From a virus, in the IMG/VR virus record IMGVR_UViG_3300045988_088524, positions 1-38,670 of that record: a stretch of 38,670 bases of DNA. One strand, given 5' to 3'. Made by a program: the position numbers and the translations under genes. Positions within the stretch are counted from its first letter, which is position 1; each line of letters opens with the position of its first letter. Positions 35,977 to 36,099 of this stretch are shown in pieces. A model generated the notes under the pieces. The model was not told where the DNA came from. It ran no database searches and worked only from the letters and a program-made list of their open reading frames with translations.

Positions 35977-35983
35977 ACGCAAG

Positions 35984-36094
35984 CCTCTCCTGCAAAAGAA
36001 ACAGCACTTCCTTTGAACTGAAGACGTACTACACGTCCGTTTGTACTGCCAAGAGCAGAACGCAAGAGAGACACGTTCTCTTTCGCAGGAGAGC
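35984..36094 (+). other. structured intergenic element B (leader of the nucleotide operon)
   Basis: 35984-36002 pairs with 36075-36093 in a stem of about 17 bp. The 3' arm contains the AGGAGAG Shine-Dalgarno of ATG 36100. There is an inner hairpin GACGT-ACTAC-ACGTC. Confidence 0.55.
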
Positions 36095-36099
36095 ATATA

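Follow-up and report, generated by a model that had tools for sequence, protein, structure and literature searches.

A lineage-specific family of modular intergenic repeats in a phage genome with a PurZ-like gene and in its relatives

The polymerase-p135 gap and its surroundings

The window, by which we mean the whole stretch of 38,670 nucleotides analysed, is a complete phage genome in a circular assembly of 38,595 bp; bases 1-75 are repeated as 38596-38670, an exact 75-nt terminal overlap. Structural and packaging genes lie on the minus strand from about 20.6 kb downward, and early and replication genes on the plus strand from about 20.8 kb. The genes referred to below are:

Minus strand, late genes: terS, terL, portal, MuF-like, HK97-gp10-like and capsid genes
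Plus strand, early genes: helicase, PrimPol-helicase, methyltransferase, exonuclease, HD phosphohydrolase, Sak4-like annealase, DUF669 and family-A polymerase genes
32286-32867, plus strand: HD (DatZ-like) phosphohydrolase gene
34207-35976, plus strand: family-A DNA polymerase gene (PolA)
Plus strand, after the polymerase: genes for p135 (129/135 aa, HAD-like), a PurZ-like synthetase and a dUTPase-like protein
36485-37615, plus strand: PurZ-like gene
37605-38045, plus strand: dUTPase-like gene

The PurZ-like product matched the Pfam family Adenylsucc_synt (7e-51), and its PDB matches include 7vf6, 6fm1 and 7odx (PurZ). A short PurA-like synthetase, an HD (DatZ-like) protein and a family-A polymerase are encoded close together, and the genome is thus predicted to carry a PurZ cluster. 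p135 (36118-36507) has a HAD-like small phosphatase fold with a DFDG motif, its closest PDB match being the hypothetical protein 2obb. In all relatives its gene is directly upstream of, and overlaps, PurZ; p135 may belong to the 2-aminoadenine module without having been recognised as part of it.

Several other stretches of the genome resemble control sites. In the divergent early/late control region (20920-21017), the palindrome TTGTGCAA(A/T)TTGCACAA occurs three times; these copies resemble operators and may be targets of the XRE-type HTH protein encoded at 26672-27067. Three sigma-70 promoter regions (23088-23132, 26605-26649 and 32228-32272), 60-71% identical to one another, each contain TTGACA and end in GTGTTATAAT; they point to a Firmicute-type host and to the limits of early and middle operons. 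Large palindromes at 14552-14613 and 20718-20772 (also 14627-14741) are 81% alike, with TTGTATTGTATTG arms and a GGGG/CCCC hairpin centre. One of the two heads the late arm and the other precedes the scaffold and capsid genes, and both are candidate late-gene control sites; further copies of TTGTATTG and TTGACA are found at 14.6-14.7 kb. The GC-rich hairpin GAGCGGGGA-GAAA-TCCCCGCTC at 451-472 is followed on the minus strand by a T-rich tail and has the appearance of an ordinary intrinsic terminator.

Between PolA and the p135/PurZ-like/dUTPase-like gene set there is a gap of 123 nt (35977-36099). An earlier annotation made from the letters of the window (the sequence-only reading) had described this gap as a structured leader with a long-range closing helix and an inner hairpin, and the main parts of that description were confirmed. 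The parts of the gap and the adjoining start region are:

35983-36002, plus strand: 5' strand of the closing helix (MFE fold, repeat finder)
35985-36019, plus strand: 5' RY module, CTCTCCTG, then the purine unit GCAAAAGAAAC, a loop and its complement TTCCTTTGAAC; the segment that is copied at 15126
36023-36037, plus strand: inner hairpin (MFE fold)
36046-36058, plus strand: second small hairpin
36060-36094, plus strand: 3' RY module, GCAAGAGAGA-CACG-TTCTCTTTCGC plus AGGAGAG; 3' strand of the closing helix
36100-36120, plus strand: p135 start region, with ATG 36100 in frame, the Shine-Dalgarno (SD) sequence GAGGGGTGA at 36104-36112 and GTG 36118

In the MFE fold, 35983-36002 paired with about 36075-36094 through 18 pairs with bulges, and the inner hairpin GACGT-ACTAC-ACGTC was present at 36023-36037. 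The repeat finder detected inverted arms of 15 nt, 93% complementary, at 35985-35999 and 36079-36093. The claimed copy of 35986-36019 at 15126-15159 was also reproduced (31 of 34 identities, with no such match in 100 dinucleotide shuffles); there, a long-range helix with 15222-15236 can close, as seen in the centroid structure. By itself, the sense fold is unexceptional: its energy was -34.6 kcal/mol (z -1.20) and 23 of 200 shuffles were equally stable, whereas the antisense strand folded more strongly (-44.4 kcal/mol, z -2.8). The centre of the gap, ACGTCCGTTTGTA, is kept only in the closest relative, L002.

A sigma-70 scan of 35977-36117 found no promoter site. TATAAT is present at 36096-36101 with no -35 element, and a transcript starting there would be without the SD. 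No T-run follows the closing helix, as would be found at an intrinsic terminator. In length, the modelled duplex (18 pairs in the window, 20-45 bp in relatives) would suffice for an RNase III site of the T7/SP82 type, an imperfect duplex of at least ~20 bp.

The sequence-only reading had taken AGGAGAG, in the 3' strand of the helix, as the ribosome-binding site (RBS) of ATG 36100. This is doubtful, because the starts of p135 homologues align with GTG 36118, which has its own SD. The homologues all begin with M-I-I-A, aligned to GTG 36118, and each has an SD of the GGAGG type 7-8 nt before the start. ATG 36100 would add six residues absent from every relative, and the corresponding ATG of L002 is not in frame. 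From sequence, GTG 36118 is the likely start of p135, and ATG 36100, being in frame, may be an additional one. GAGGGGTGA is located outside the closing helix, on its 3' side, with a mean pairing probability of 0.23 versus 0.67 in shuffled-leader controls (0.50 versus 0.58 in shuffles over 18 elements); only the alternative start ATG 36100 has its AGGAG (36087-36091) within the helix. SD sequestration or translational coupling was rejected as a general feature, since the SD paired with the first 30 nt only in L039, L041, L058 and L011.

Copies of the repeat family in the genome

The gap 35977-36099 belongs to a family of modular intergenic repeats that is specific to this lineage and has at least five junction copies in this genome, at 15.1, 17.3, 20.0, 32.1 and 36.0 kb. 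The building block is a purine-rich unit of ~11 nt, with a consensus of approximately SCAAGGAAR (GCAAGGAGAA, CCAAGGAAG, GCAAAGAAAG and similar), together with its complement; we denote the purine unit R and its complement Y. Units are arranged as tandem arrays with 10-13-nt spacing or as inverted arrays around a variable GC-rich hairpin, which creates long imperfect palindromes. The orders RY..RY, YY..RR, RRR..RY, RY..RRR and R-only were all seen. A short conserved unit recurring about one helical turn apart in both orientations would, as far as its sequence goes, be consistent with an operator array. The copies other than that in the PolA-p135 gap, with the promoter that follows one of them, are:

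15126-15236, minus strand: 15-kb copy, between the gene for a 52-aa protein (p52) and the HK97-gp10-like gene
17265-17303, minus strand: mini copy at the portal/MuF-like junction, ACGGAAAG, CAAGAGAAACG and CCTTTCT (R, R, Y)
20027-20058, minus strand: terS/terL array, three tandem R units between terS, whose stop codon they directly follow, and terL
32100-32212, plus strand: exo-HD copy after the exonuclease gene, with Y units, a centre, R units and one Y unit
32243-32272, plus strand: consensus sigma-70 promoter between the 32.1-kb copy and the HD gene, TTGACA-18-TATAAT with TG

On its sense (minus) strand, the 15-kb copy consists of three tandem R units (15236-15204, spaced 11/11 nt), a centre and an RY module (15159-15126). 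The exo-HD copy has arms of 16 nt, 94% complementary (32109-32124 and 32178-32193), and was the top-scoring family copy by profile. The profile HMM was built from the elements of ten relatives only and run on the window; its top matches there were 32100-32197 (E 4e-5), 15208-15242, 36004-36072 and 20023-20050, with the scores of coding look-alikes at 306-346 and 23.6 kb falling among those of the family copies. The terS-terL R array is kept in L074-L076. Downstream of it, at 19985-20020, the segments ACTTTA / TAAAGT / ACTTTA could form two mutually exclusive small hairpins; they are located just before the SD of terL and are kept in L076.

Some candidate copies were discarded. The match at 306-346 is coding sequence. 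A third copy with 71% identity at 23593, together with phased R units at 23655-23690, is protein-coding and kept as such in L076 (CVSCETGGTSLE...PPKKKAKRKPKEYAFEG). This stretch (23593-23710), within the coding region of a 269-aa protein, contains an RY-like segment and three phased R units encoding PPKKKAKRKPKE; this mimic of the element may be a domesticated copy or a coincidence. A search of viral contigs with a 23-base core gave a sole match, in an unrelated AT-rich coding region (L001), attributable to chance. Rfam gave no match at gathering thresholds and only noise at E up to 10. Among GenBank phages, viral contigs and representative bacterial genomes, no copies were found outside this phage group.

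The alternative offered by the sequence-only reading, that the two similar segments are copies of a small inverted-repeat element, was essentially right, although what is repeated is a modular family of tandem or inverted ~11-nt units and probably no classical MITE. As in MITEs, there are terminal inverted repeats, multiple copies and presence/absence polymorphism. Inspection by eye of two PolA-p135 junctions, those of the window and L002, showed no obvious flanking direct repeats that could be a target-site duplication, and the number and order of modules vary; with its composition not fixed, the element is therefore probably not a classical MITE.

The junctions in related phages

Searches with PurZ, PolA and TerL in viral and metagenome collections yielded 78 loci (given L numbers here), and the relatives were examined as 7-21-kb pieces. 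Many of the metagenome contigs come, to judge from the names of their records, from rumen or gut samples. No related record was found among GenBank phages, and no prophage relative in the representative bacterial genomes searched. The hosts are probably Firmicutes of the rumen or gut. The repeat family is present at corresponding junctions in related rumen/gut PurZ phages.

The gene order DUF669-PolA-p135-PurZ-dUTPase was constant in all relatives. Taken between homology ends, the PolA-p135 junction was short (5-47 nt) in 9 distinct relatives and long (111-450 nt) in 33; the element was missing from 9 of the 42 distinct junctions, with the PurZ module intact. Long junctions held a homologous or analogous element, or an HNH or small ORF. 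Judged from these sequences, the junction is a hot spot for insertions: L008 (4843-5247) and L060, and likewise L006, L012 and L013-L015, have an HNH-like ORF or small ORFs there. In six relatives (L005, L007, L034, L036, L037 and L044), the PolA frame traverses the first half of the element, the pyrimidine array, giving a read-through tail of ...KWDGFSVVSVPPPLAS; in L034 it crosses the whole element and forms an ATGA overlap with p135. Because of this read-through, gene callers will hide the element.

On the sense strand, the typical PolA-p135 element consists of 1-4 Y units, a GC-rich variable hairpin, 1-4 R units and the SD (seen in L011, L019, L033, L031, L039, L041, L058, L062 and L013); the nested RY...RY version was found in the window, L002, L003 and L004. 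At the p52-gp10 junction, the window has RRR-centre-RY versus RY-centre-RRR in L074-L076. The R arrays invariably have sense orientation and lie towards the downstream gene, and in L008 and L051 the last R unit doubles as the SD of the next gene. At the exo-HD junction, all element-bearing relatives have the element directly upstream of TTGACA-17/18-TATAAT, and several relatives have the promoter only. In L062, a consensus promoter is located between the element and the SD at the PolA-p135 junction. The centre of the element is hypervariable across sub-lineages and cannot be aligned between the window/L002 and L003/L004 types. A fixed central spacer was rejected: 45-46 nt is a mode shared by several elements (L031, L019/L033/L011 and both L041 copies), and the others range from 9 to 69 nt.

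Sharp mosaic boundaries were seen at or beside elements. Between the window and L003, the identity of 94-96% in PolA (34600-36000 region) falls to ~58% in the gap. Between the window and L002 (32000-32500), a patch of 94-97% identity is centred on the exo-HD element; this element with its promoter is the best-conserved stretch of the pair, versus ~75-80% elsewhere.

We compared the junctions with the 4-fold degenerate sites of PolA in pairs of relatives. For the window and L002, the gap was 72% identical versus 32% at the 4-fold sites; the corresponding values for junction and 4-fold sites were 77% and 43% (L003/L004), 66% and 28% (L019/L011), 71% and 29% (L033/L011) and 76% and 45% (L018/L021). 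Overall, orthologous intergenic regions showed 65-77% identity with the PolA 4-fold sites saturated, the baseline for non-orthologous family members being 47-53%. Since orthologous copies are far more alike than saturated synonymous sites, the element is under constraint; from these sequence comparisons it is probably functional. Copies within a genome were also more alike than copies from different loci in different genomes (mean local score 13.8 versus 11.3; Mann-Whitney p 5e-4, with pairs that are not independent).

In 9 of 10 elements, the innermost unit showed compensatory changes from GC to CG, and the window-type helix changed from AU to CG at three pairs. These changes indicate that either the pairing or the identity of the arms matters. 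The covariation on which the sequence-only reading had made its helix depend was thus found in part: the arms are kept complementary by compensatory changes, but without an RNA-type strand asymmetry. G·U mismatches were not favoured over A·C mismatches (89:81 overall; 15:12 among isolated mismatches, p 0.70, a test of low power with 27 events), and the sense strand was more stable than the antisense strand in 9 of 20 elements. The sense-specific pairing expected of a structured cis-regulatory RNA was not found in these comparisons. Many relatives have stems of 20-45 bp with z of -3 to -5.5.

Protein sites, mRNA hairpins and recombination

Several known systems resemble the family in part. Stoperators of mycobacteriophage L5/Cluster A are reportedly single 13-bp sites bound by the repressor gp71 (Brown et al. 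1997 is the source named for them). Many such asymmetric sites are located in short intergenic gaps, oriented with transcription, and act on elongating or initiating RNA polymerase. By analogy, the units described here are asymmetric intergenic sites oriented with transcription at operon junctions, with a putative protein binder; they differ in forming arrays and palindromes, whereas stoperators are single sites with a known repressor. The 11-bp repeats of ParR-parC (plasmid R1) and the heptads of the omega repressor are iteron arrays of ribbon-helix-helix (RHH) proteins, in direct or inverted orientation. Their units are likewise short, about one helical turn apart and direct or inverted, but they serve as plasmid partition or copy-control sites at promoters, and no RHH or ParR gene was found in this genome. 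REP sequences are host-chromosomal, occur in hundreds of copies and are mobilised by RAYT, and neither a chromosomal location, nor hundreds of copies, nor RAYT mobilisation was seen here. The likeness to REP/BIME of enterobacteria (see also PMC3733652) lies in imperfect palindromes in mosaic combinations between co-directional genes.

The SAS/ESAS elements of Cluster K mycobacteriophages are short asymmetric repeats that immediately precede some of the start codons. Almost all of them point the same way with respect to transcription, and imperfect inverted repeats with variable spacers come before about half; the authors found little support for mRNA hairpins and described their function as unknown (PMC3203893). 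Short repeats upstream of starts, one orientation, inverted repeats and a sub-lineage-dependent consensus are shared with the present family (PMC3203893). There is no sequence similarity, however; the units here are purine-rich, of ~11 nt and in tandem up to 4, the complementary arms are of 20-45 nt with compensatory changes, and sites occur in both early and late operons. PeSL of T4-type phages are cassettes of an early promoter and a terminator stem-loop (PMC2839356, PMC4122927). They share with the present family repeated intergenic regulatory cassettes, variable junctions and modular shuffling (PMC2839356, PMC4122927), but the element here has neither promoter nor U-tract, a promoter following it at two junction types. 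The RNase III sites of T7 and SP82, together with the polypurine or STAB-SD 5' stabilisers of SP82 (cited in PMC7509114 and PMC3997798), are repeated intercistronic hairpins with a purine-rich SD-like neighbour. In the present family, there is no RNA-type strand bias, likeness to the SD is only what composition predicts, and cleavage is putative.

The sequence-only reading had proposed an RNA switch or thermometer for the PurZ genes, that is, a ligand- or temperature-sensing leader whose closing helix hides the RBS of the PurZ operon. The helix and alternative local hairpins do exist, the 3' arm includes the AGGAG of 36087-36091, with the in-frame ATG 36100 following 8 nt later, and pairing of the 5' CCUCUCC with the real SD is possible in a four-way consensus fold. 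However, the element is optional, being missing from 9 of 42 junctions that keep the same genes; the family also occurs at the terS-terL, portal-MuF and p52-gp10-like junctions, which are unrelated to nucleotide metabolism; and the elements at exo-HD and in L062 are upstream of a consensus promoter and hence not in the leader. Sub-lineages have no common conserved core, and no conserved sensing core accompanies the genes wherever they are found. The likely SD is outside the helix rather than sequestered in it and is less paired than in shuffles, the z of the fold is only -1.2, and Rfam has no match. The proposal is therefore unsupported, and we consider such a leader very improbable.

Our preferred reading, to which we give a probability of roughly 35%, is that a sequence-specific protein recognises the units as phased sites at operon junctions, in the manner of stoperators or ESAS. 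This protein, encoded by the phage or the host, would bind the units cooperatively along one face of the duplex, and inverted arrays with the central dyad would assemble a symmetric nucleoprotein complex. Located between the stop codon of one unit, which it would directly follow, and the promoter or SD of the next, the complex would set the amount of transcription passing or starting at the junctions. The PolA-PurZ-module junction would then be co-regulated with the start of the DatZ-like operon and the three late-gene junctions; it would sense neither nucleotide nor temperature, and the mRNA hairpin would be a by-product of inverted DNA arrays. Recognition by a protein is suggested by the CAAG core, the ~11-nt phasing, the use of either orientation, the sub-lineage variants and the modest excess of similarity within genomes. 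The only binder candidates are the XRE-type HTH protein (26672-27067), a sub-threshold winged-helix match (24923-25219) and a weak regulator-like match in the C-terminus of the PrimPol-helicase; the protein matches of the genome identified no binding protein beyond these weak candidates.

The same features could be read at the level of mRNA. The palindrome would fold in the polycistronic transcript, the hairpin being processed by an RNase III-type enzyme or protecting the upstream 3' end, and SD-like R units 5' of the downstream cistron would hold ribosomes as a standby site or 5' stabiliser. This is possible, though we doubt it. Elements begin 0-20 nt past the upstream stop and reach the downstream SD; stems of 20-45 bp with z of -3 to -5.5 occur in many relatives, their arms staying paired through compensatory changes, and some centres have GNRA- or UUCG-like loops. 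R arrays are always sense, the last unit serving as the SD in L008 and L051, and for the window, L002, L031 and L033 the true SD is more accessible than in shuffles. The stability of B. subtilis and SP82 mRNAs with SD-like leaders, dependent on the RBS as cited in PMC7509114 and PMC3997798, is a precedent. Against this, there is no bias of G·U over A·C, and sense is not stabler than antisense. The likeness of the units to an SD does not exceed that of composition-matched shuffles; a role as decoy SD was likewise rejected, complementarity to the 3' end of 16S rRNA being no higher than in such shuffles. A hairpin needs neither a conserved CAAG core nor 11-nt phasing, R-only arrays are unable to fold, and the exo-HD R array, upstream of the promoter, is absent from the downstream mRNA. 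A recombinogenic or selfish cassette, spread and homogenised by recombination as in REP/BIME or PeSL, seems to us somewhat unlikely. Tolerated in intergenic positions only, such a cassette would mark the boundaries of modules, its hairpin and SD-like traits being incidental. It would account for presence/absence polymorphism, close relatives with permuted architectures, intragenomic similarity, the coincidence of junctions with mosaic breakpoints (window versus L003 and L002), the HNH and small-ORF insertions at the PolA-p135 junction and the ORFs that read through elements; the genome encodes a Sak4-type annealase, and PeSL are a precedent (PMC2839356, PMC4122927). However, orthologs are far more conserved than synonymous sites and hence not neutral, flanking direct repeats were not seen by eye at two junctions, boundaries are not fixed, no transposase or RAYT-like gene was seen in the genome, and no copies were found outside the phage group.

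As replication or packaging sites, the units would be iteron-like arrays bound either by the small terminase or by the C-terminal domain of the PrimPol-helicase, the latter being the ori/crr type known from satellite phage P4. Phased short direct and inverted repeats, one array immediately after terS and the weak regulator-like match in the primase-helicase C-terminus agree with this, but the five sites are dispersed and some belong to the late operon, inspection showed no AT-rich unwinding region beside them, and the elements are optional at each junction; we find it quite improbable. Three identities were rejected: CsrA sites, most units in the window having no GGA motif; integron attC, with terminal boxes that do not match RYYYAAC/GTTRRRY and no integrase found; and attP arm sites, with five loci and no integrase seen. 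Phased protein sites are favoured by the constraint on orthologs together with conservation at exo-HD, by the absence of an RNA-type strand signature and by the position of the element directly upstream of a consensus promoter (exo-HD, and PolA-p135 in L062). Arguing against them are the in-register arms with compensatory changes, which a hairpin explains more directly; the sense-strand R arrays beside the downstream start, with the last unit serving twice as SD, which fit a role at the mRNA level; the absence of a promoter after the element at most junctions; and the five scattered sites, few for a global regulator.

A bolder version of the preferred reading, which we hold to be unlikely, is that the units form the operator code of an undescribed DNA- or RNA-binding regulator of PurZ phages, co-evolving with the sub-lineage variants and tying the Z-base module (the DatZ-like operon start and the PolA-PurZ junction) to three late-gene junctions. 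The corrected start of p135 and the read-through of the element by PolA matter for annotation. These results remove a tempting claim of an RNA switch for 2-aminoadenine synthesis and replace it with a testable conserved intergenic code at five junctions. If the code consists of RNA punctuation or recombination linkers, it would bear on module exchange at exactly these junctions; if the units are protein sites, they would show the timing of nucleotide-remodelling and structural genes in uncultivated rumen/gut Z-genome phages.
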